DNA of 6,833 bases, from the IMG/VR virus record IMGVR_UViG_2802429221_000012, positions 1 through 6,833 of that record; one strand, written 5' to 3'. Position 1 is the stretch's first letter. Each line of letters begins with the position of its first letter. Source of the DNA: a virus. Lineage: Duplodnaviria > Heunggongvirae > Uroviricota > Caudoviricetes. Shown here piece by piece: positions 1 through 6,833 of the stretch. Under the pieces are notes generated by a model, which did no database searches, was not told the origin of the DNA, and saw only the letters and a list, made by a program, of their open reading frames with translations. A program made the translations under genes and the position numbers.

Positions 1-1005
1 TTAATCCCCCGTGGACACTGCGTGGACACTCACGCCACCTTTCAGCGGATTAAGGGCCACCGCATCCTGCAGGTAATCCGGTGCAAAATGTGCATATGCC
101 ATTGTTTGCTGAATGGTTGCGTGACCAAGAATCTTCTGAAGTGCAATAATGTTTCCTCCGTTCATCACAAAATGGCTGGCGAACGTATGCCGCAGCACAT
201 GTGCAGCCTGGCCTTTTGGTAAATCGGGCTTAACTCTTTTCAGCGCCAAGCAGAATTCCCGGTACTTCACCTCAAACAAGCCGCCTGTTTCTCTGGTTTT
301 GATCGCCTCACAAACTGCCTGCGAAATTGGCACTGTTCTCTTTCGGCCATTTTTGGTTTCAAGAAACGTTACACGGTTATGAACTATCTGTTCACCACGA
401 AGCTTACAAGCTTCACTCCAGCGCGCCCCTGTGCTTAAACACAAAAGCGCAACACGCCAGTAGTCGCCCTCCAGTGTATCGAGCAATAGCGCTACTTCCT
501 TCTGGGACAGGAAAGCCATTTCTCGTGGAGATACATAAAGAATAGAAATCCCCCTTACCGGATGCTCTGCATCCCAGAGGCCTATTTTCTTCAGTACGGT
601 AAACATTCCGGATAACCGATTCATGTATCTGTTAGCAGATGACGGTTTCAATCCATCAGCTATCTTTTGAGAACGCCACGCGATAATTTTCAGCTTATCA
701 AGATCCACAGCCTGCATATCAGCGCCAAGCTCATTGATTATGTTGCGCAGTTGTTTTCGATCTTCTTCAGCCTTACGCCTGTGCTGGCCGTGATACATCC
801 ACCACAACTCAAGCAAATCATTTAGCGTTCGACGATCACGGTAGCCCTGTATATATTCCCGCTTTTCAGCGTTCGCCATGATGTAGCGTTCAGTGGCCAC
901 CGCTACCGATTTTTTGTCAAATACCTTACGCACGCGCTTTCCCTTGCGTCCGTTCGGCCTGATGTCCAGCAAATAACGACCATCTTCGAGCTTCTTAATC
1001 GACAT
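1..1005 (-). CDS. int: Phage tyrosine integrase (site-specific recombinase), P2 Int-like, 334 aa
   Basis: Track ORF 1..1020(-) begins at a TTG; the first ATG is at 1005..1003 (MSIKKLEDGRY...), preceded on the coding strand by GGAGGG (complement of 1013-1018) at 7 nt spacing. C-terminal region contains HVLRHTFASH and QTMAYAHFAP, the H-x-x-R and catalytic-Tyr motifs typical of tyrosine recombinases. N-terminus and overall length resemble P2 Int from memory. Stop codon is at window positions 3..1. Confidence 0.9.
   Translation of the reverse strand: MSIKKLEDGRYLLDIRPNGRKGKRVRKVFDKKSVAVATERYIMANAEKREYIQGYRDRRTLNDLLELWWMYHGQHRRKAEEDRKQLRNIINELGADMQAVDLDKLKIIAWRSQKIADGLKPSSANRYMNRLSGMFTVLKKIGLWDAEHPVRGISILYVSPREMAFLSQKEVALLLDTLEGDYWRVALLCLSTGARWSEACKLRGEQIVHNRVTFLETKNGRKRTVPISQAVCEAIKTRETGGLFEVKYREFCLALKRVKPDLPKGQAAHVLRHTFASHFVMNGGNIIALQKILGHATIQQTMAYAHFAPDYLQDAVALNPLKGGVSVHAVSTGD
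11..30. repeat. Tandem direct repeat GTGGACACT-gc-GTGGACACT inside the 3' end of int; candidate integrase arm-type binding sites
   Basis: Seen directly: 9-bp unit at 11-19 and 22-30 with an 11-bp period. From memory, P2-family Int arm sites are short direct repeats containing GTGGACA near the int 3' end; that recollection is unverified. Confidence 0.3.
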
Positions 1006-1101
1006 CGCGAAGCCCTCCAATGAACCGCTCTACAATTTCTCCAGCCTCTTTCCAGCAATAATCAGACCAGACAAAAAGCAGGTCTAACCAGTTTTCTGGC
1101 C

Positions 1102-1422
1102 TCAGCGGGGTGATTTTTGGTTTGTTTCGGTTGAAACCTGATCGCCCTCCGAATCGAAGAAGCCATCAAGAGAGAGAGGCGGAGCAATCTGCCCCGTCGC
1201 AGCATTAGTTTGATTAAACATCACCCAATCCGAATACTTCCGAAAACGAGGATGATTCAAAATCAGGAGTAACGTTTCTCCAGGTATCATTCTTCCCAAT
1301 ATTTCATAATTTTTGAGATTGTTTTGAGATACCCCTGTCACCTCTTCCATCTCTCTACGTGACAATCCCTCTGCCTCTCGAATCAGGCGAAGTTTTTCTC
1401 CAAGGCTTGATTTATGGATCAT
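1102..1422 (-). CDS. C: Immunity repressor, P2 C-like HTH protein, 106 aa
   Basis: Track ORF 1102..1440(-) begins at GTG; first ATG at 1422..1420 (MIHKSSLGEKLRL...). Helix-turn-helix-like segment LSRREMEEVTGVSQNNLKNYE, and a C-terminal ...NQTNAATGQIAP... stretch resembling P2 C as I recall it. Divergent from cox, upstream of int, as in the P2 C-int operon. Confidence 0.8.
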   Translation of the reverse strand: MIHKSSLGEKLRLIREAEGLSRREMEEVTGVSQNNLKNYEILGRMIPGETLLLILNHPRFRKYSDWVMFNQTNAATGQIAPPLSLDGFFDSEGDQVSTETNQKSPR

Positions 1423-1537
1423 ATGTGATCTAAACTCCACGATATTGGGTTACATGTAATACAAAACATTCAAATAGCCAAAATAAGCCTATATAAGCCA
1501 TTTTGGGCCATTTGGACGAATTAAGGAGATTACCACA
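1423..1537. promoter_or_regulatory. Divergent Pe/Pc lysis-lysogeny switch region with candidate early promoter and operator repeats
   Basis: 115-bp AT-rich spacer between divergent C and cox starts. Candidate rightward promoter: -35 TTCAAA (1469-1474), 17-bp spacer, -10 TATAAG (1492-1497). Direct repeat TAAGCC at 1484-1489 and 1494-1499 flanks the -10; tandem CCAtttTGG / CCAttTGG at 1498-1506 and 1508-1515 overlaps the predicted transcript start. cox RBS AAGGAG at 1523-1528. Promoter and operator assignments are by eye and not experimentally anchored. Confidence 0.5.
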
Positions 1538-1825
1538 ATGAGCGAATCAGAGCTTGAGGGGTTCATTCAGGTAGCACCATATCCACTTGAAGCGGTGCCA
1601 TATCAACTATTTGCCAAGATGATTGGTCGCAAAGAATCAACCGTCAGAACCATGATTGACGCTGCAAAGTTACCAACGATTGACTTTGTGAAACCAGGTT
1701 CAGTGAAGACGCGAGCATCAGAAAACTGGGTATATCTGCCAGCATTTAACGCAGGTATGCGCAAAGCATTTTTTGATCAGCCGAAAGAGCGCCGCGACGC
1801 ATGGTTGCTCTGGCTGGGTCTTTGA
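1538..1825 (+). CDS. cox: Cox-like excisionase / early transcriptional regulator, 95 aa
   Basis: ATG 1538 with AAGGAG 9 nt upstream. Translation contains ...VPYQLFAKMIGRKESTVRTMIDAAKLPTID...NWVYLPAFNAG...RRDAWLLWLGL, closely resembling P2 Cox as recalled (WVYLPAWN, WLMWLGL). First gene of the rightward operon, divergent from C. Confidence 0.85.
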   Translation: MSESELEGFIQVAPYPLEAVPYQLFAKMIGRKESTVRTMIDAAKLPTIDFVKPGSVKTRASENWVYLPAFNAGMRKAFFDQPKERRDAWLLWLGL

Positions 1826-1836
1826 CGAGGATTTTT

Positions 1837-2178
1837 ATGAGACAACAACGTAATTCACGCTTCCGCAACGGTGCGGAACGCCATGCTAACCGTTTCGCTA
1901 CCAGTGCATCACGTAGCAACTCTCGCTACAGCCTGAGCGAAACACACGCAACGCCGGATGGCTACCCAGTAAAACAAATCGGCGAGCACGCCTGGTTGAT
2001 TGAGAAAGCTGGAATCGTGGTCCACAAATGCCCACGCAATCCGTTTACCGGAAACCGCATTTTTGCACTGAGCAGCGGCGACAATCAGTTCGGGCAGGAT
2101 TTCACATTATACGAAGCACTTCGCACGGTTGATCGTCTGCTTCGCGGGCAAAGTTTTATTAAACAGGCTGATTTATAA
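1837..2178 (+). CDS. Hypothetical phage early protein, 113 aa, basic N-terminus
   Basis: In-frame ATG at 1837 within track ORF 1801..2178, GAGG at 1827-1830 six nt upstream; begins 11 nt after the cox stop. Translation MRQQRNSRFRNGAERHANRF... has no domain I can recognise. Confidence 0.6.
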   Translation: MRQQRNSRFRNGAERHANRFATSASRSNSRYSLSETHATPDGYPVKQIGEHAWLIEKAGIVVHKCPRNPFTGNRIFALSSGDNQFGQDFTLYEALRTVDRLLRGQSFIKQADL

Positions 2179-2188
2179 CAGGTGCTTT

Positions 2189-2467
2189 ATGACCAAAGAG
2201 CATGCACAAGGTGTATTTATCCGTTTTATTGATTTTCGCGGTGAACTGTTATTACGTGCATCAGCTATTGATGCTGTAGCCCAGGCAGAAAAAAAAGCAG
2301 TTACTCACGTTTATGCGAACAACGCACAACTGATCGTGGAGCTTCCGTACCAGACCGTTCGCGAAGCCATTAACGAAGCTGAAAAAGCGTGCCAGGCTAA
2401 TAGCGATGAACCCTATATCGAAATTATTTGTATGGATTCAGAAGCTGAAATTAAGAAAGCAGATTAA
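2189..2467 (+). CDS. Hypothetical phage early protein, 92 aa, acidic
   Basis: In-frame ATG at 2189 within track ORF 2129..2467, 10 nt after the previous stop (MTKEHAQGVFIRF...). Same strand and tight spacing as the rest of the operon. No recognisable domain. Confidence 0.6.
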   Translation: MTKEHAQGVFIRFIDFRGELLLRASAIDAVAQAEKKAVTHVYANNAQLIVELPYQTVREAINEAEKACQANSDEPYIEIICMDSEAEIKKAD

Positions 2468-2478
2468 AGGGCGTTGTG

Positions 2479-2721
2479 ATGGGCAAAGAATATAAAACTC
2501 TCATTAACAAAGCACTTGAGCGTTTTTATTTTCGCTTAAGCGCATCAGGCGCTCATGCTGAACGTGCAGCCCGTGACTCATTGACCAGGGCAATCCGGAG
2601 TCTGTATGACGTGGCTTTTTACGCTGATGATCTGGATGCACTTAACGAACTTTCCGAGCTGATCTGTGCCGCAGAATGCGGGGAACATATTGAACCGTAT
2701 AAGCTGGGGAATATTGCATGA
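2479..2721 (+). CDS. Hypothetical phage early protein, 80 aa
   Basis: ATG at 2479 (track ORF starts at GTG 2476), 11 nt after the previous stop. Translation MGKEYKTLINKALERFYF...; stop TGA 2719-2721 overlaps the start of the next small ORF. Confidence 0.6.
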   Translation: MGKEYKTLINKALERFYFRLSASGAHAERAARDSLTRAIRSLYDVAFYADDLDALNELSELICAAECGEHIEPYKLGNIA

Positions 2722-2831
2722 GTATATTTATCTCATGGCTTGTTCTGATTATTTCGGTGGTCTGCGCCATTGGGATTATGCGAATTATTCATTCAGTAAA
2801 AAAGATTGAACGCTTTTTCACTGGTGAATAA
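2718..2831 (+). CDS. Small hydrophobic peptide, 37 aa, predicted single transmembrane helix with basic C-terminus (not in supplied ORF track)
   Basis: ATG 2718-2720 overlaps the upstream TGA stop (ATGA junction). Translation by hand: MSIFISWLVLIISVVCAIGIMRIIHSVKKIERFFTGE, stop TAA 2829-2831. About 20 hydrophobic residues then KK/R-rich tail. It is short, so a chance ORF in this AT-rich stretch is possible. Confidence 0.4.
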   Translation: MSIFISWLVLIISVVCAIGIMRIIHSVKKIERFFTGE

Positions 2832-2924
2832 CGATACAAATAAAACATCAAATTAAATAAGAAAACGTGAAAACCATCCGTATTAACGGAGGTATTCGCA
2901 CACGAAAATAACGGAGATACAAAA

Positions 2925-3335
2925 ATGCACGCAAAAGAAGAAGGTATCATCAGAGCACTGAAAGAAATTTCAAAGACAGAAAACGAAGTAGCGAAAAAAG
3001 CCATAGCAAATAATCATATGGACGTCGCAACCCACACACTGATAGTCGCAAGAGTCACGGCAGAAGCAGCCGAAATTATCGCACAACAGGATGCTGAACT
3101 GGCGGTTCTCAGAACACAACCAGTCACCGGACTGGATTTGTCTAACACCGGACGCCTTATTTACACAATTGGCTCGGAGCTACAGCGATACACCATTATC
3201 GCCGGGTTACAGGATAAATACCTGATCACTCCTCACCCCATAAGGGAATCAGAAATTCTGACAAATCTCCGCCTGATAGAGCGCTCTCAAGTCGCATTCA
3301 TTGATGACGCACAGTGCACCGTATTTAACGCATAG
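2925..3335 (+). CDS. Hypothetical protein, 136 aa
   Basis: ATG 2925 with GGAG at 2913-2916 (8-nt spacing), preceded by a 93-bp AT-rich spacer (2832-2924) that could hold an internal promoter. Translation MHAKEEGIIRALKEISKTENE... has no recognisable domain. Confidence 0.65.
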   Translation: MHAKEEGIIRALKEISKTENEVAKKAIANNHMDVATHTLIVARVTAEAAEIIAQQDAELAVLRTQPVTGLDLSNTGRLIYTIGSELQRYTIIAGLQDKYLITPHPIRESEILTNLRLIERSQVAFIDDAQCTVFNA

Positions 3336-3358
3336 GGTTACTGGACAAAGGGGGCGCA

Positions 3359-3562
3359 ATGGCAATTAAGCATTTTCCCGTCGTTCGCTTTACCTCCAGA
3401 GGGCGCGAATACGAGGTCGACGAACGCCTGATTACCACTATCGACAAACATCGTTCGGAAAAGGATGCACACCACATCTACCTCACTGACGGCACTTACT
3501 TCTGCGCCACGAATGTGGTGCGGGTGAACCTTATCCGACAGGTACAGGAGTCACGCAGATGA
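3359..3562 (+). CDS. Hypothetical small protein, 67 aa; first gene of a translationally coupled chain
   Basis: ATG 3359 with AAAGGGGG at 3347-3354. Stop TGA 3560-3562 overlaps the next ATG at 3559 (ATGA). C-terminal tail ...VRVNLIRQVQESRR. Confidence 0.6.
   Translation: MAIKHFPVVRFTSRGREYEVDERLITTIDKHRSEKDAHHIYLTDGTYFCATNVVRVNLIRQVQESRR
3520..3562 (+). repeat. Copy 1 of a duplicated ~43-nt gene-junction segment (C-terminal tail codons, Shine-Dalgarno, ATGA overlap)
   Basis: 3534-3562 TCCGACAGGTACAGGAGTCACGCAGATGA versus 3916-3944 TCCGACGGGTACAGGAGTCACACGGATGA: 26 of 29 identical by manual alignment, with weaker similarity extending about 14 nt upstream. Confidence 0.7.
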
Positions 3563-3825
3563 CCATTCTGGACTATATCGCTACTCATCCGGGTTGTAGC
3601 GGCGGAGAAATCGCCGCAGCACTGAATACTCCAACCACAGCCATTAATGCTGAGTTACGCCGACTTTGGCGCAGCGGCTTAGTCATCAGAACAAACCGCA
3701 GCACAGGTGGTCACGCTCGCAAAACAGGAGGCCGGGCTTCTTACCACGTAAACCCGATGCCGTTCGGGTGTGGCAACCCACTAACCCACATGTTTAACCA
3801 GCTACTGAAGGAAGCCAGAGCATGA
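3559..3825 (+). CDS. Putative winged-helix DNA-binding protein, 88 aa
   Basis: ATG 3559 overlapping the upstream stop, with AGGAG at 3546-3550. N-terminal segment LDYIATHPGCSGGEIAAALNTPTTAINAELRRLWRSGLVIR looks like a winged helix-turn-helix; this is inferred from the pattern, not from a search. Confidence 0.6.
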   Translation: MTILDYIATHPGCSGGEIAAALNTPTTAINAELRRLWRSGLVIRTNRSTGGHARKTGGRASYHVNPMPFGCGNPLTHMFNQLLKEARA

Positions 3826-3944
3826 GCACCATCAACCACCAGGAACCACGCGAACTGGCGACTGCCGTACAAAGAATGTCTACCCAAAAATCACTGCCAT
3901 TCCGTGTGAGCCCTGTCCGACGGGTACAGGAGTCACACGGATGA
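3822..3944 (+). CDS. Small ORF, 40 aa, coupled at both ends (not in supplied ORF track)
   Basis: ATG 3822-3824 overlaps the upstream TGA (3823-3825); stop TGA 3942-3944 overlaps the next ATG at 3941. Hand translation: MSTINHQEPRELATAVQRMSTQKSLPFRVSPVRRVQESHG. Its 3' end repeats the 3' end of the 3359-3562 gene. Confidence 0.4.
   Translation: MSTINHQEPRELATAVQRMSTQKSLPFRVSPVRRVQESHG
3902..3944 (+). repeat. Copy 2 of the duplicated ~43-nt gene-junction segment
   Basis: See copy 1. Both copies end in an ATGA stop/start overlap and encode an (I/V)R(Q/R)VQES tail on the upstream protein. Confidence 0.7.
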
Positions 3945-4159
3945 ACAGAAGGAGAATTACACGCAGACATCGCCGCACGCGCCTGAGCTCCCCGCCAACA
4001 CTAAAGGAACTCATTCAAAGCGAGATCGGTGATTTCTTCGCTGGGTTTGGATCACCTGGCGAACCAGAAACACCAGAAGCGATGCAGCGCGAACTCATGA
4101 TGCGCATCGATAACGTTTTTGACTTTTTCCTGAATAACAAAAGAGAGCAACCGACATGA
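3941..4159 (+). CDS. Hypothetical protein with arginine-rich N-terminus, 72 aa
   Basis: ATG 3941 overlapping the upstream stop. N-terminus MNRRRITRRHRRTR has 8 Arg in the first 14 residues, followed by an acidic C-terminal half (EIGDFF...EPETPEAMQRELMM...). Stop overlaps the next ATG at 4156. Confidence 0.6.
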   Translation: MNRRRITRRHRRTRLSSPPTLKELIQSEIGDFFAGFGSPGEPETPEAMQRELMMRIDNVFDFFLNNKREQPT

Positions 4160-4359
4160 ACGAAAGGACCTGGTTTCGCGCATACATGTGGGCGCTGGTA
4201 TGCGTCCTCTTTTCTCTCATTCTGTATGCAGGACTACTCCCCCGAATGATTTCATCAGACAGCTCCTTCCTGGTATTGCTGGGCATTTTCATTGCCATGC
4301 TGTACCCGGCAGGCGTTGTTCGCCTTTTCAGTAAATACATCAAGGAAATCAAACAATGA
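4156..4359 (+). CDS. Small integral membrane protein, 67 aa, two predicted transmembrane helices; putative partner of the downstream SPFH protein
   Basis: ATG 4156 overlapping the upstream stop. Two hydrophobic stretches (WALVCVLFSLILYAGLL and FLVLLGIFIAMLYPAGVV) separated by a short polar loop. Stop TGA 4357-4359 overlaps the SPFH gene ATG at 4356. Confidence 0.65.
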   Translation: MNERTWFRAYMWALVCVLFSLILYAGLLPRMISSDSSFLVLLGIFIAMLYPAGVVRLFSKYIKEIKQ

Positions 4360-5186
4360 AGAAATTCAAACTCTTTCAGATTATCCCGCTTTTTGCCGCC
4401 ATCCTGCTGGTTGGTTGCGATCGCGTTGAACCAGGTAATGTGGGCATCAAAGTCAACAAACTGGGCGACGATAAAGGCGTCGGTGAAGTGGTTGGCGTTG
4501 GCCGCTACTGGACAGGCTGGAATACCGAGGTTTACATCTTCCCGACCTTCAAACAAATGAAGACCTACGATGAGCCATTCAGCTTTCAGATGAGTGACGG
4601 CACAACCATCGGCTATCACATCGGTGTGGCCTACAAGGTTGATCCATCCAAAGTTACCACAGTGTTTCAGACCTACCGCAAAGGCGTGGATGACATTACC
4701 GACACTGACCTGCGCCAAAAGATCGCCGATGCACTCAACCGACTGGCCAGCAAAATGACCACCGATAAGTTTATCGACGGTGGCAAGTCTGAACTGCTGG
4801 ATTCAGCACTTAAAGACATTCAGGCAGAAATGACACCTATCGGCATTCAGGTAATGAGCCTCTCTTATGTGGGTAAGCCGGAATACCCGCCAACCGTTAT
4901 CGACAGCATTAATGCCAAAGTCACGGCAAACCAGAAAACTCTGCAACGCGAGCAGGAAGTCAAGCAACGCGAAGCAGAAGCCAACATGTTGCGCGCAGAA
5001 GCTGCCGGACAGGCTGATGCCATTCGCACAAAAGCCCAGGCTGAAGCCGACGCCATTCGTTTACGCGGTGAAGCTCTGCGCCAGAATCCCGGCGTTATGG
5101 AGCTGGAAGCAATCAACAAATGGAACGGCACGCTGCCGCAATACATGACCAGCAATACCGCTGTTCCGTTTGTTCCGGTGAAGTAA
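4356..5186 (+). CDS. SPFH/band-7 (stomatin/prohibitin/HflK-C-like) family lipoprotein, 276 aa
   Basis: ATG 4356 with AAGGAA at 4342-4347. N-terminus MKKFKLFQIIPLFAAILLVGCDR is a signal peptide plus lipobox (LVGC); Asp at +2 after the Cys suggests inner-membrane retention in enterobacteria. C-terminal Ala/Glu/Gln/Arg-rich predicted coiled-coil segment ...QREAEANMLRAEAAGQADAIRTKAQAEADAIRLRGEALRQNPGVMELEAINKW... is characteristic of SPFH-domain proteins. Family assignment is from motif recognition only. Confidence 0.75.
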   Translation: MKKFKLFQIIPLFAAILLVGCDRVEPGNVGIKVNKLGDDKGVGEVVGVGRYWTGWNTEVYIFPTFKQMKTYDEPFSFQMSDGTTIGYHIGVAYKVDPSKVTTVFQTYRKGVDDITDTDLRQKIADALNRLASKMTTDKFIDGGKSELLDSALKDIQAEMTPIGIQVMSLSYVGKPEYPPTVIDSINAKVTANQKTLQREQEVKQREAEANMLRAEAAGQADAIRTKAQAEADAIRLRGEALRQNPGVMELEAINKWNGTLPQYMTSNTAVPFVPVK

Positions 5187-5192
5187 TTAAAC

Positions 5193-5237
5193 CCGGCCGG
5201 TGAAAATCGCTGGCCGGAGCAGTATCAGGATTTTTTT
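5193..5237 (+). terminator. Candidate terminator-like hairpin downstream of the SPFH gene
   Basis: CCGGCCGG (5193-5200) pairs with CTGGCCGG (5210-5217), an 8-bp GC-rich stem with one G-U pair and a 9-nt loop. The T7 run (5231-5237) is 13 nt downstream, so this is atypical for an intrinsic terminator. Confidence 0.3.
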
Positions 5238-5338
5238 AGCATGCCGTTCTCACAAAAAAACCGCTTGCCATGCCGCAATCAGTCAGGTTACATTTCCGCT
5301 GTACCTCATAAAACGGGTGCCGGGTTTCGCAGCCTGCT

Positions 5339-5544
5339 GACTAGCAAAGCGCACAACCGCGCCAGCGGTTTTTTTGTGCGTACTGTATTGCCACGTCTTT
5401 TTCGCACACGAATTATGGCGGGGCGTACGGGGCCGACTTCGGTCGGGCCGGGTTCTTTGCTAGCCGGTACTGCGAACCTCGTACGTCTCGCCACCCACAG
5501 TTTCGCAGCTCTGGATGGTGAGTTTTCAAAACTTACTAGCAAAG
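5339..5544. repeat. Three copies of a 9-10 bp motif ACTAGCAAAG (two direct, one inverted) in the non-coding spacer; candidate regulator binding sites
   Basis: ACTAGCAAAG at 5339-5348 and 5535-5544 (flanks CTnACTAGCAAAGnG also match); inverted copy CTTTGCTAGC at 5455-5464. The core GCTAGC is palindromic. The third copy directly abuts the AAGAGG RBS (5542-5547) of the 5555 gene. Confidence 0.4.
5351..5379 (+). terminator. Candidate intrinsic terminator (short GC stem plus T7 run)
   Basis: ACCGC (5356-5360) / loop GCCA / GCGGT (5365-5369) followed immediately by TTTTTTT (5369-5375). Flanking GCACAA (5351-5356) and TTGTGC (5374-5379) are also complementary. The stem is short, so strength is uncertain. 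Confidence 0.4.
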
Positions 5545-5554
5545 AGGCCACACC

Positions 5555-5785
5555 ATGGCAAACCGCAAACAGCACCGCGCTATCGCGGAGCGTCGTCACA
5601 TCCAGACTGAAATCGATCGCAGACTCACCCGCGCTGCACACATCGCCTTTATCATGCAATCCAACACATTGCACAGACTCAACAGCACTATTTCAGCCGA
5701 CTACTGCGCCGCTGTATTCAGCTATCTGGCGGAAGACCTCCTGTCTCTTCAGGATCTCATCCAGCAGCAAAACAAACTCCATTAA
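5555..5785 (+). CDS. Hypothetical phage early protein, 76 aa
   Basis: ATG 5555 with AAGAGG at 5542-5547 (7-nt spacing). Translation MANRKQHRAIAERRHIQTEIDRRLTRAAHIAF...; same strand as, and upstream of, the replication gene. Confidence 0.6.
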   Translation: MANRKQHRAIAERRHIQTEIDRRLTRAAHIAFIMQSNTLHRLNSTISADYCAAVFSYLAEDLLSLQDLIQQQNKLH

Positions 5786-5858
5786 TTCCTGTTCCGGGCC
5801 TTTCCTGCACCTTGCGGCGGGAGGCCTTCGCACATCTGTAGTAAAGAGGATTGCCGCA

Positions 5859-6224
5859 ATGATTCTCGCCAACGACTTTCTTGAATACCTGCTCAACACA
5901 GAGCGTGATCTTGCCGTTCGCGTGCGTGAACGTTATGACATGTACCTGAAATCCCTGCCTGTACCGCAGCTCGCTGACGGAAAATTTGTTATTGATGGTC
6001 GCTACATGATTGACAGCCACGAGGGGAATTACAGGCTTTACCGCATTGAAGCCGGCACCCCGTCCGTTATTGGCATTTACCAGCGCCCATCCTCTGCGAT
6101 CGTCGATGTGATTGCCGACAGCATCCGCATCACACATCGCCATGCCGACACAGAAGACACCGTGCTGGAAATTCAGCGGCTGGCTACAGTCTGCCGCGAC
6201 ACCCTGAATGGCATGACGAAGTAA
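5859..6224 (+). CDS. Hypothetical phage early protein, 121 aa, immediately upstream of replication gene A
   Basis: Track ORF 5241..6224 is an open frame with a low-complexity S/T/R-rich 5' region that overlaps the terminator-like hairpins and the 5555 gene. The plausible start is the in-frame ATG at 5859, with AAGAGG at 5844-5849 (9-nt spacing). Translation MILANDFLEYLLNTERDLAVRVRERYDMYLK...; stop TAA 6222-6224. Confidence 0.6.
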   Translation: MILANDFLEYLLNTERDLAVRVRERYDMYLKSLPVPQLADGKFVIDGRYMIDSHEGNYRLYRIEAGTPSVIGIYQRPSSAIVDVIADSIRITHRHADTEDTVLEIQRLATVCRDTLNGMTK

Positions 6225-6230
6225 ATCACT

Positions 6231-6833
6231 ATGACAGCAGAGTACATCAGGGACTGGCAACAACCGCGCCACGCAGTGGGGCGTGAAGGAACGGGGATCC
6301 CCGCTCCTGAATCCGCGCTTTCCTCCTGGCTGGATGCCTACCGGGCAGAGAACGAGCGCCGCCAGGAAATAGCTGATGCGGCGTTCTCCGCCACACCGCT
6401 GGGCAACCTGATTAATAAAAGCCTGGACGCACAGGAAAAACAGGACAAAACCATCACACTGGCAGGAGACGCCAGAAAACAGGCACGCGGCGCGGTGGAT
6501 GAAGCCATGGCCTCGCTGCGCCTGCTGCCGTCCTATCTGCGCGATCCGCTTATTCGCCACCTCTCCTTCCTGCGCAAAAAACAGGAAGCCGATCGCCGGA
6601 AAGGCAAAAAGAGCTGGCAGGCTGAACGCTACGCGTGCGGAACCCTGCGCAAAATATTCGAACGTCTGGACCGCACCGACCACCGCTGGCTGACACCGGG
6701 TTATCGCTCCCTTGCCGGACGCGAACGCCTGGATGATTTGCTTTACCTACCGCAGCTCAACAAACACCAGATACAGACACTGGCCACCATGACGGCGGCG
6801 ATGTTCAGCAGCACCTTCGAAAAACTCTGCGAT
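6231..6833 (+). CDS. A: Replication initiation endonuclease, P2 gpA-like, N-terminal 201 codons (3' end beyond the window)
   Basis: ATG 6231, 6 nt after the previous stop; frame is open to the window end by manual translation (MTAEYIRDWQQPRHAVGREGTGIP...LRLLPSYLRDPLIRHLSFLRKKQ...AAMFSSTFEKLCD). The RLPSYLR and F..EKLCD segments resemble the N-terminal region of P2 gpA as I recall it; position after the early genes matches P2. Absent from the ORF track because it has no stop inside the window. Confidence 0.7.
   Translation, partial: MTAEYIRDWQQPRHAVGREGTGIPAPESALSSWLDAYRAENERRQEIADAAFSATPLGNLINKSLDAQEKQDKTITLAGDARKQARGAVDEAMASLRLLPSYLRDPLIRHLSFLRKKQEADRRKGKKSWQAERYACGTLRKIFERLDRTDHRWLTPGYRSLAGRERLDDLLYLPQLNKHQIQTLATMTAAMFSSTFEKLCD

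Follow-up and report, generated by a model that had tools for sequence, protein, structure and literature searches.

SPFH proteins build closed membrane cages in all domains of life, and the clients of these cages are mostly debated. Many types of phage carry an SPFH gene; the role of the phage SPFH lipoproteins 'remains unclear' according to a 2026 paper (PMC13239085), and the literature on phage and prophage SPFH proteins, P88 and P2-like phages yielded only annotation mentions, speculation on an HflKC-like part in lysis–lysogeny (PMC4936722) and a report from Pasteurella (PMC9872710). The SPFH gene considered here is the last of six consecutive genes in a stretch of 6833 nucleotides (nt; 'the window'), positions 1–6833 of IMG/VR virus record IMGVR_UViG_2802429221_000012. 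The window spans one end, from integrase to A, of a P88-type prophage (Xuanwuvirus, Peduoviridae; P2-like) of E. coli, and the six genes are a mosaic, distal portion of its early (Pe/Cox-side) operon. The six genes, read on the + strand from the list of open reading frames (ORFs) and the raw sequence, encode 67, 88, 40, 72, 67 and 276 amino acids (aa) and are called gene 1, gene 2, ORF3, ORF4, gene 5 and gene 6 in what follows. A preliminary description had taken all six for one accessory module. The only facultative cargo in the chain is genes 5–6 plus ~64 nt (~4156–5250), that is, a protein with two transmembrane (TM) segments followed by an SPFH lipoprotein, and this two-gene cassette is self-contained, moving among P2-like, P1-like, lambdoid and many unrelated phages.

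Closest described systems

P88 itself (NC_026014) carries gp08–gp12 at the same operon position, with ~90% DNA identity to the window and in the order 67-aa protein, winged-helix protein, Ea22-like gene, 67-aa membrane protein and 276-aa lipoprotein, all joined by 4-nt overlaps. It differs in having one intact 104-aa Ea22-like gene where the window has a 40-aa chimera and a 72-aa variant, and in lacking the 136-aa gene that precedes the chain in the window. The P88 record assigns a function to none of gp08–gp12.

For the SPFH protein the comparison is with the HflK/HflC–FtsH cage (PDB 7vhp, 7wi3 and 9cz2). Both have an SPFH domain, a long coiled-coil helix and a C-terminal capping segment, they align structurally over their full length (Foldseek E ~1e-13), and the SPFH domain, periplasmic in HflK/HflC, is probably so in the gene 6 product. 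The identity is only ~17%, however, and the gene 6 product is predicted to be anchored by lipid (by a third TM helix in fused relatives), whereas HflK and HflC each have an N-terminal TM helix of their own. HflK/C is a hetero-oligomer, whereas the gene 6 product is predicted to be probably a homo-oligomer. The SPFH–NfeD operons (QmcA–YbbJ, PDB 8z5g; YqiK–YqiJ) resemble the cassette in that an SPFH gene is paired and co-transcribed with the gene of a small membrane protein, and QmcA is a significant fold match. Unlike NfeD proteins, the partner in the cassette is a bare hairpin of two TM segments, ~60–78 aa long, with a P-x3-S loop. Gene 5 has no NfeD match in Pfam, only a sub-threshold match to RseC_MucC (E = 0.021), and a protein of 67 aa with two TM segments separated by a short loop is too small to hold the NfeD OB-fold. 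The SPFH domain of QmcA is cytoplasmic, the topology opposite to that proposed for gene 6.

Two further comparisons concern position and timing. The morons and variable slots of P2-like phages (old, tin and fun/Z) are, like the cassette, facultative, swappable cargo at a fixed position between conserved phage genes. Unlike them, the cassette sits within the early lytic operon, between the Ea22-like gene and an isrK/C4 region, has no detected promoter of its own and does not deviate in base composition. Imm and Sp of phage T4 are alike by analogy, as a small inner-membrane protein and a membrane-anchored periplasmic protein made early in infection, but have no sequence or fold relationship to the cassette.

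A two-gene cargo slot

The segment 4156–5250 behaves as a moron does, being present or absent at a fixed site between conserved flanks. Compared by blastn with L013, L014 and L003 (labels of this form denote the genomes and phage records compared), its left edge lies at ~4135–4159, the end of the Ea22-like/ORF4 gene, and homology resumes at 5251. The slot is empty in L013 and L014, and also in the majority form (ST131, O157:H7), which runs from gene 1 through the MarR gene (gene 2) and an Ea22-like gene into a non-coding region. Of 5426 complete E. coli genomes, 1201 have genes 1–2 together, nearly always on the chromosome; the P88-type pair of genes 5 and 6 occurs in 145, equal to ~12% of the genomes with genes 1–2. 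An evenly spaced sample of 60 hits contained 29 with the span of an empty slot (~1.1 kb) and 5 with a filled slot in the P88 context. Other relatives combine the parts differently: L007 has gene 1 and ORF4, with neither the winged-helix gene nor the pair, and L008 has gene 1, ORF4 and the pair, again without the winged-helix gene. The Ea22-like and TM genes lie ~11 nt apart in L004 and L015, with no overlap. The preliminary description had raised the possibility of a variable slot at 3359–5186; the slot is real, but it is limited to two genes. The earlier characterization of their products as a 2-TM membrane protein and an SPFH lipoprotein was sound. A different cargo is seen in the slot of L003 (NZ_OZ039818), where 4954–5775 holds the gene of a 183-aa protein with two HTH-type segments (HTH_11 and HTH_24) and a truncated ash-family pseudogene.

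From just past the signal peptide, the SPFH gene is 87–93% identical in DNA to genes of phiP27, Stx2 phages and P1-like phage-plasmids. The cassette is present in 386 plasmid places and is common in Shiga toxin-producing E. coli (STEC), Stx phages and clinical isolates. Its base composition gives no foreign-DNA signature. A crude consensus scan found no sigma-70-like promoter site upstream of 4156, and promoter and terminator scans that covered the window, phiP27 and RCS47 turned up no convincing promoter or terminator for the cassette, promoter-like sites being as numerous as in shuffled sequence. The hairpin in the 3' tail of the cargo (Table 1) has a computed folding energy of -22.7 kcal/mol (z = -2.35), has no adjacent U-tract and is not called a canonical terminator.

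The SPFH lipoprotein

Gene 6 encodes a member of the SPFH superfamily, with a match to Band_7 (PF01145) of E = 7.6e-31 and 107.9 bits against a cut-off of 23.6. The N-terminus comprises MKKFK, a hydrophobic helix (residues 2–18) and the lipobox L-V-G-C21, which agrees with the pattern [LVI][ASTVI][GAS]C, so that the product is a predicted lipoprotein. Cys21 is found in 98 of 107 family representatives. Asp22, at position +2, is kept in the enterobacterial homologs (GCDRVEPG motif). In the C-terminal motif K-W-N-G-x-L-P, residues W256 and G258 never vary and P261 occurs in 102 of the 107; solved SPFH cages close their cap at this segment. The AlphaFold2 model, with a predicted local distance difference test (pLDDT) score of 92.6, has a signal helix, an SPFH domain (21–176), a coiled-coil helix of 65 residues (179–243), a short helix (245–255) and a tail. 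A Foldseek search matched it from end to end with HflK/C, prohibitin, erlin, stomatin, QmcA and flotillin (E 1e-14 to 1e-8, 14–18% identity); 66 PDB matches reach E <= 1e-3, and the top 50 listed are all chains of SPFH-family or major vault proteins. The nearest solved protein by sequence is HflK (E = 7e-4), and the HflK and HflC equivalog models, TIGR01933 and TIGR01932, require 159.4 and 134.4 bits but give only 22.7 and 24.8, respectively. NCBIfam and PADLOC scans of the whole set of six proteins added only generic HTH and weak HflK/C matches.

The mature SPFH protein is nearly frozen while its anchor parts diverge freely. Between P2-like, P1-like and lambdoid copies, the ratio of non-synonymous to synonymous substitution rates (omega) in the mature part is 0.008–0.011 at synonymous divergences (dS) of 0.42–0.97, whereas synonymous sites are saturated in the signal peptide and the 2-TM gene (proportion of synonymous differences, pS, 0.73–0.82), and the encoded sequences are only 20–43% identical. 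The mature-domain module has evidently been swapped among cassettes more recently than the anchor parts, to judge from these divergences. A mosaic boundary lies at the lipobox, between 4356–4418 and 4419–5186.

The family is large as well as strongly constrained, and is mechanistically no surprise yet. It forms 2894 clusters of 50% identity at E <= 1e-3, at least 558 IMG/VR contigs carry relatives, and it corresponds to PHROG 200. Distant homologs sit among replication and early genes, including on contigs without visible lysogeny genes. In several records the gene is mislabelled 'putative serine protease'.

The hairpin partner

Hydropathy places two hydrophobic segments in the gene 5 product, at residues ~9–28 and 36–55, and the positive residues at both ends suggest that both termini are cytoplasmic and joined through a short periplasmic loop. 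The loop, at the end of the first TM segment, contains a conserved P29-x-x-x-S33 motif, which is invariant or nearly so in 3 free-standing and 16 fused homologs. A homolog search with gene 5 returned close relatives only; more remote partners were traced via the neighbours of SPFH genes and via fusions. In 78 of 80 IMG/VR loci a 2-TM ORF lies upstream of the SPFH start, with an ATGA overlap in 56, a 20-nt overlap in 21 and, in one, abutting it without overlap. One of the two exceptions is a frameshifted copy and the other has only 210 nt upstream of the SPFH start. These 80 loci come from a search with a 10-sequence alignment that returned only relatives of at least 92% identity. They include three types of 2-TM protein with a mutual identity of only 20–43%, all with Pro-x-x-x-Ser. 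A 2-TM ORF overlapping the SPFH start is also found in phiP27, RCS47, L016 and L017, and the same small ORF stands 5' of SPFH genes that are only 43–53% identical, in the replication modules of unrelated phages.

The two genes are also linked by fusions. In ~17 independent clusters of 50% identity the hairpin is fused to the SPFH domain, with P-x3-S kept and with a lipobox-like third hydrophobic segment; two of these fusions were located in phage-like contigs. Because the two are fused in other phages, genes 5 and 6 are taken to work as one unit. What is added here to the knowledge of phage SPFH genes is that enterobacterial temperate phages carry the SPFH gene as the downstream member of a strictly conserved pair, in translational overlap with the gene of a tiny 2-TM protein, and that the pair is swappable cargo. 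A 347-aa E. coli protein (P0091, 8 member sequences) has the P1-type 2-TM protein in frame with the SPFH lipoprotein, as either a real fusion or the result of a 1-nt indel. Two reference records leave the 2-TM gene unannotated, that of phiP27 (L005, NC_003356), where it occupies 2762–2950 (62 aa), and that of the P1-like phage RCS47 (L006, NC_042128), where it occupies 2730–2966 (78 aa).

A composite operon

Genes 1 and 2 and the Ea22-like gene are ordinary lineage-conserved early genes of P88-type prophages, not cargo. Gene 1 belongs to no Pfam family, and its homologs are restricted to Escherichia and close relatives, all with at least 69% identity in the homolog search. Genes 1 and 2 are both under purifying selection, with an omega of 0.13–0.19 for gene 1 against P88 and L008. 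The AlphaFold2 model of gene 1 (pLDDT 86, five strands) predicts a small all-beta barrel, for which a fold search gave only non-significant SH3/Sac7d/Tudor-like matches (E > 0.1). Gene 2 exceeds the Pfam cut-offs for MarR_2 (E = 4.5e-7, 30.4 bits; cut-off 27) and HTH_24 (24.8 bits; cut-off 21.9) and matches phrog_1687 ('MarR family', E = 4.4e-31). Since it is absent from relatives of the L007 and L008 types, it is dispensable. The 246-aa profile phrog_19053 spans gene 1 (profile positions 84–134) and the winged helix (162–243), which suggests that a fused form of the two genes exists somewhere.

The 40-aa ORF3 has two origins. Codons 1–29 are the N-terminus of the Ea22-like gene (P88 gp10 family), and its phrog_4144 match is limited to residues 1–29; the remaining ~11 codons duplicate the 3' end of gene 1. 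The duplication takes the form of a 45-nt direct repeat (Table 1), recovered in a repeat search as family D1 with 82% identity and a spacing of 382, whose second copy has a further match at the junction of genes 1 and 2 in L004 and L015. Removal of 3566–3905 from the window, essentially the stretch between the repeat copies, gives the L008 arrangement. By these alignments ORF3 is a recombination scar.

ORF4 is the arginine-rich small protein of the preliminary description, which had also recognized the winged-helix DNA binder. Its N-terminus is rich in arginine (the protein begins MNRRRITRRHRRTR), and its C-terminal ~45 aa align with the C-terminus of the Ea22-like protein. The exact protein sequence occurs on 433 contigs, and ~165 E. 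coli genomes have an ORF4-type 72-aa gene directly after gene 1 with an ATGA overlap, the arrangement seen in L007, L008 and most relatives carrying ORF4. The name 'Ea22-like' rests on NCBI annotation only; P88 gp10 scores 20.5 bits against the gathering threshold of 27 for the Ead/Ea22-like family PF13935, and neither ORF3 nor ORF4 has a Pfam match. In the nearest E. coli genome, L002, the NCBI Prokaryotic Genome Annotation Pipeline (PGAP) marks ORF3 and ORF4 as two pseudogene fragments, ORF3 as 'frameshifted; incomplete', and it makes the ORF4-type gene an N-terminally incomplete pseudogene at L002 4523–4660, L007 3620–3757 and L008 3617–3754. Against L007 (82% DNA identity over the region) omega is 0.26 overall and 0.17 in the arginine-rich N-terminal third, and the full frame of 72 codons and both ATGA overlaps are kept. 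An omega of 0.26, with a frame and two overlaps that stay open in a copy of only 82% DNA identity, led to the rejection of ORF4 as pseudogene debris. ORF4 is thus probably a working, intact variant gene under purifying selection, and the PGAP call is probably wrong.

The layout of the window is best read, from the alignments, as a recombinant of P88-type and L008-type operons. Illegitimate recombination would have joined a P88-type operon, broken within its Ea22-like gene, to an operon of the L007/L008 type, where the 72-aa gene comes immediately after gene 1; the 40-aa chimeric ORF and the second copy of the 45-nt junction would be its products. Few genomes have exactly this six-ORF layout: the ORF3/ORF4 join is matched at 95% identity or more in at most ~15 of the 5426 complete E. 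coli genomes. The direction may also have been the reverse, a repeat-mediated deletion in the window type yielding the L008 type, which tells against this account of ORF3 and ORF4.

A putative membrane cage

Since the early operon that holds the cassette is repressed by C, and no promoter-like site precedes the cassette, its products are expected to be made at induction or infection. Lifting of C repression at Pe would lead to co-translation of the 2-TM and SPFH proteins. The hairpin would insert in the inner membrane, its two ends remaining cytoplasmic, while the SPFH protein, after export and lipidation at Cys21, would be held in the inner membrane. Retention there is suggested by the Asp at +2 and by the fused relatives, where a third TM helix anchors this domain. 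Through its long coiled-coil helix and the KWNGxLP segment, the SPFH protein would then oligomerise into a closed, HflK/C-like cup on the periplasmic face, and the hairpins would form the transmembrane palisade that is otherwise given by the N-terminal helix of a canonical SPFH protein, so that the pair would fence a patch of inner membrane. The pair resembles a canonical TM-anchored SPFH protein divided in two, and the SPFH protein probably assembles as a cage on the periplasmic side of the inner membrane when the early lytic genes are expressed. For this explanation as a whole, composite operon and cage cassette together, we estimate a probability of about 0.7.

Several points weigh against it. 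Oligomerisation, lipidation, retention in the inner membrane and contact between the hairpin and the SPFH protein are all deduced from sequence and structure prediction. The timing of expression is read from position and a crude consensus scan, and there may be an internal promoter active in the lysogen; phiP27 and P1-like phages have an intergenic region 5' of the cassette, which could hold a promoter of its own. The Asp at +2 is followed by Arg at +3, with an uncertain effect on inner-membrane retention, and across the family the +2 residue varies (T, D, E, S, Q). Finally, the SPFH protein of a Pasteurella prophage is found in outer-membrane vesicles (PMC9872710); should it belong to the same family, this would argue for a location at least partly in the outer membrane.

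As to what such a cage does, an early-lytic envelope function, for example blocking superinfecting DNA or stabilising the membrane, is a tentative suggestion with the odds against it, and control of a membrane protease such as FtsH is unlikely; what is left of the probability goes to something else. It is likewise doubtful, though conceivable, that the hairpin and the lipid-anchored SPFH protein represent an undescribed and very widespread phage membrane-cage system, deployed early as an exclusion or anti-abortive-infection device or to capture a host machine. The ~1.1-kb unit (4156–5250) is a compact handle on a minimal, putatively homo-oligomeric bacterial SPFH cage.

Alternative explanations

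The proposal that all six genes form one co-adapted accessory module, with products acting in fixed proportions, draws on the five consecutive ATGA stop/start overlaps (at 3559, 3822, 3941, 4156 and 4356, exactly as first placed) and on the equivalent five-gene chain of P88 with the same overlaps. ATGA overlaps are the commonest overlap class in phage operons, and the same operon has another at 2718, so that the class is not peculiar to the chain; the coupling shows co-expression, as the preliminary description held, but not the fixed stoichiometry that it considered probable. The parts, moreover, assort independently in the majority form, L008, L007 and L003, genes 1–2 being far more frequent than the TM and SPFH genes (1201 versus 145 genomes). 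The latter pair stands alone in lambdoid and P1-like phages, ORF3 is chimeric, and the Ea22-like and TM genes of L004 and L015 are separated. A single module is highly improbable, and for annotation the chain should not be handled as a unit. More plausible, while still doubtful, is an envelope-level anti-phage system, effecting superinfection exclusion or abortive infection through a cage that would block or sense DNA injection, by analogy with T4 Imm/Sp or P22 SieA. It would suit a facultative cargo that is polymorphic in a defined slot, is spread over unrelated temperate phage types and phage-plasmids (the 386 plasmid places), lies in the accessory region of P1-like genomes and is predicted to face the inner membrane and periplasm, and early expression would fit exclusion of the early T4 type. 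PADLOC-DB v2.0.0, however, contains no match for the SPFH protein, or for gene 1, ORF3 or ORF4, and gives only weak generic matches (E >= 0.005) for the winged-helix and 2-TM proteins; the literature search found no link of SPFH proteins to anti-phage function. Homologs stand beside replication genes, including on contigs without visible lysogeny genes, and an omega of ~0.01 departs from the rapid evolution that arms-race proteins typically show. Classical exclusion expressed in the lysogen is particularly disfavoured, because a cassette in the C-repressed operon without a promoter-like site of its own would leave the lysogen unprotected.

Two further explanations keep the cage and give it another target. 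The SPFH protein might mimic HflK/C, caging or displacing FtsH and so altering protein turnover, lysis–lysogeny or host takeover. HflK is its nearest solved relative by sequence, HflK/C chains are its top fold matches and its SPFH domain would lie on the same periplasmic side, but the protein falls far short of the equivalog models (22–25 bits versus 134–159), and an identity of 15–18%, no better than to prohibitin, erlin or stomatin, makes the resemblance generic to the superfamily. The cassette also occurs in phages with no lysogeny module visible on the contig, and to our knowledge P88-type phages use a Cox/C switch and have no FtsH-labile CII. Such a mimic, although speculated on for another phage-borne SPFH protein (PMC4936722), is unlikely here. 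Much less likely still is lysogenic conversion or virulence, with a triacylated SPFH lipoprotein carried in vesicles and acting on an animal host. The precedent, by analogy, is Pmorf0222 of a P. multocida prophage, an HflK/C-like protein of 25–35 kDa that is expressed in the lysogen, is present in outer-membrane vesicles and activates Toll-like receptors (TLR) 1/2, and whose deletion attenuates virulence (PMC9872710); the frequency of the E. coli cassette in STEC, Stx phages and clinical isolates would agree with such a function. Activation of TLR2 is, however, generic to lipoproteins, the family extends over environmental and lytic phage contigs, and the constant pairing with a 2-TM inner-membrane partner points to a function in the bacterial membrane.

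Layout of the window and neighbouring features

In close E. coli relatives the prophage is inserted beside pdxB. The features of the window are collected in Table 1. A Shine–Dalgarno-like purine run stands upstream of each of the six starts in the chain. The cox-to-A interval measures 4.4 kb in the window (1825 to 6231), whereas in P2 it is 1.75 kb (26280 to 28034). The early operon of the P2 record contains none of the six chain genes, and its genes between cox and A differ (orf78, B, orf80–83); the chain genes are common only to P88-type prophages. The preliminary description had named both differences from P2 correctly, and its caution that the genes might be a conserved part of some P2-like lineages was justified for genes 1–2.

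Table 1. Positions of the genes and other features of the window
Feature	Position	Strand	Remarks
int	1–1020	-	
C-type repressor	1102–1440	-	
cox	1538–1825		Followed by a DUF4761 gene, a hypothetical gene and a DUF4754 gene
37-aa single-TM ORF	2718–2831	+	ATGA overlap with the DUF4754 gene at 2718
136-aa ORF	2925–3335		Directly upstream of the six-ORF chain; no Pfam match
Gene 1, 67 aa	3359–3562	+	phrog_3459, E = 1.2e-45
45-nt direct repeat, copy 1	3521–3565	+	3' end of gene 1, Shine–Dalgarno sequence and ATGA junction
Gene 2, 88 aa, MarR-type winged helix	3559–3825	+	ATGA-coupled to gene 1
ORF3, 40 aa, chimeric remnant	3822–3944	+	From alignments to P88, L003 and L004
45-nt direct repeat, copy 2	3903–3947	+	Joint giving the ORF3 stop and the ORF4 start
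ORF4, 72 aa	3941–4159	+	phrog_4144, E = 1.7e-27
Gene 5, 67 aa, 2-TM hairpin	4156–4359	+	phrog_1130; first cassette gene
Gene 6, 276 aa, SPFH/Band-7 lipoprotein (predicted)	4356–5186	+	phrog_200, E = 8.8e-112; second cassette gene
Cargo 3' tail	5187–5250	+	11-bp hairpin at ~5193–5217; U7 run 13 nt downstream
Non-coding stretch			Downstream of the chain
isrK Hfq-binding small RNA	5301–5375	+	Rfam match, 61.7 bits
C4 antisense RNA	5411–5498	+	Rfam match, 82.8 bits
76-aa 'derepression' protein	5555–5785		
121-aa ORF			
Replication endonuclease A	from 6231		

The 37-aa single-TM ORF is a further tiny membrane protein of the same early operon, annotated in P88 (gp07, 'membrane protein') and in all the E. 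coli relatives examined. Just 5' of the chain, 2905–3347 is a second variable slot, which holds the 136-aa ORF: homology to relatives without this ORF stops at ~2904 and restarts at ~3348. The ORF is present in L002, L003, L008, L013 and L014 and absent from P88, L007 and L015, and L004 has an 87-aa gene in its place.

Downstream, the gap between the SPFH gene and the next ORF contains, at 5288–5498 on the + strand, two Rfam matches above the gathering score, to isrK and to the C4 antisense RNA (Table 1). A weak match to the c4-a1b1 target lies at 5288–5340, promoter-like sites lie at 5265–5294 and 5388–5416, and a terminator-like hairpin at 5355–5370. The 76-aa product of the next ORF has a weak, sub-threshold match to the Pfam Derepression family ('derepression protein'). 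This arrangement looks like an antisense-RNA/antirepressor module of the P1/P7 immI type or the P4 type, situated in a P2-like early region.

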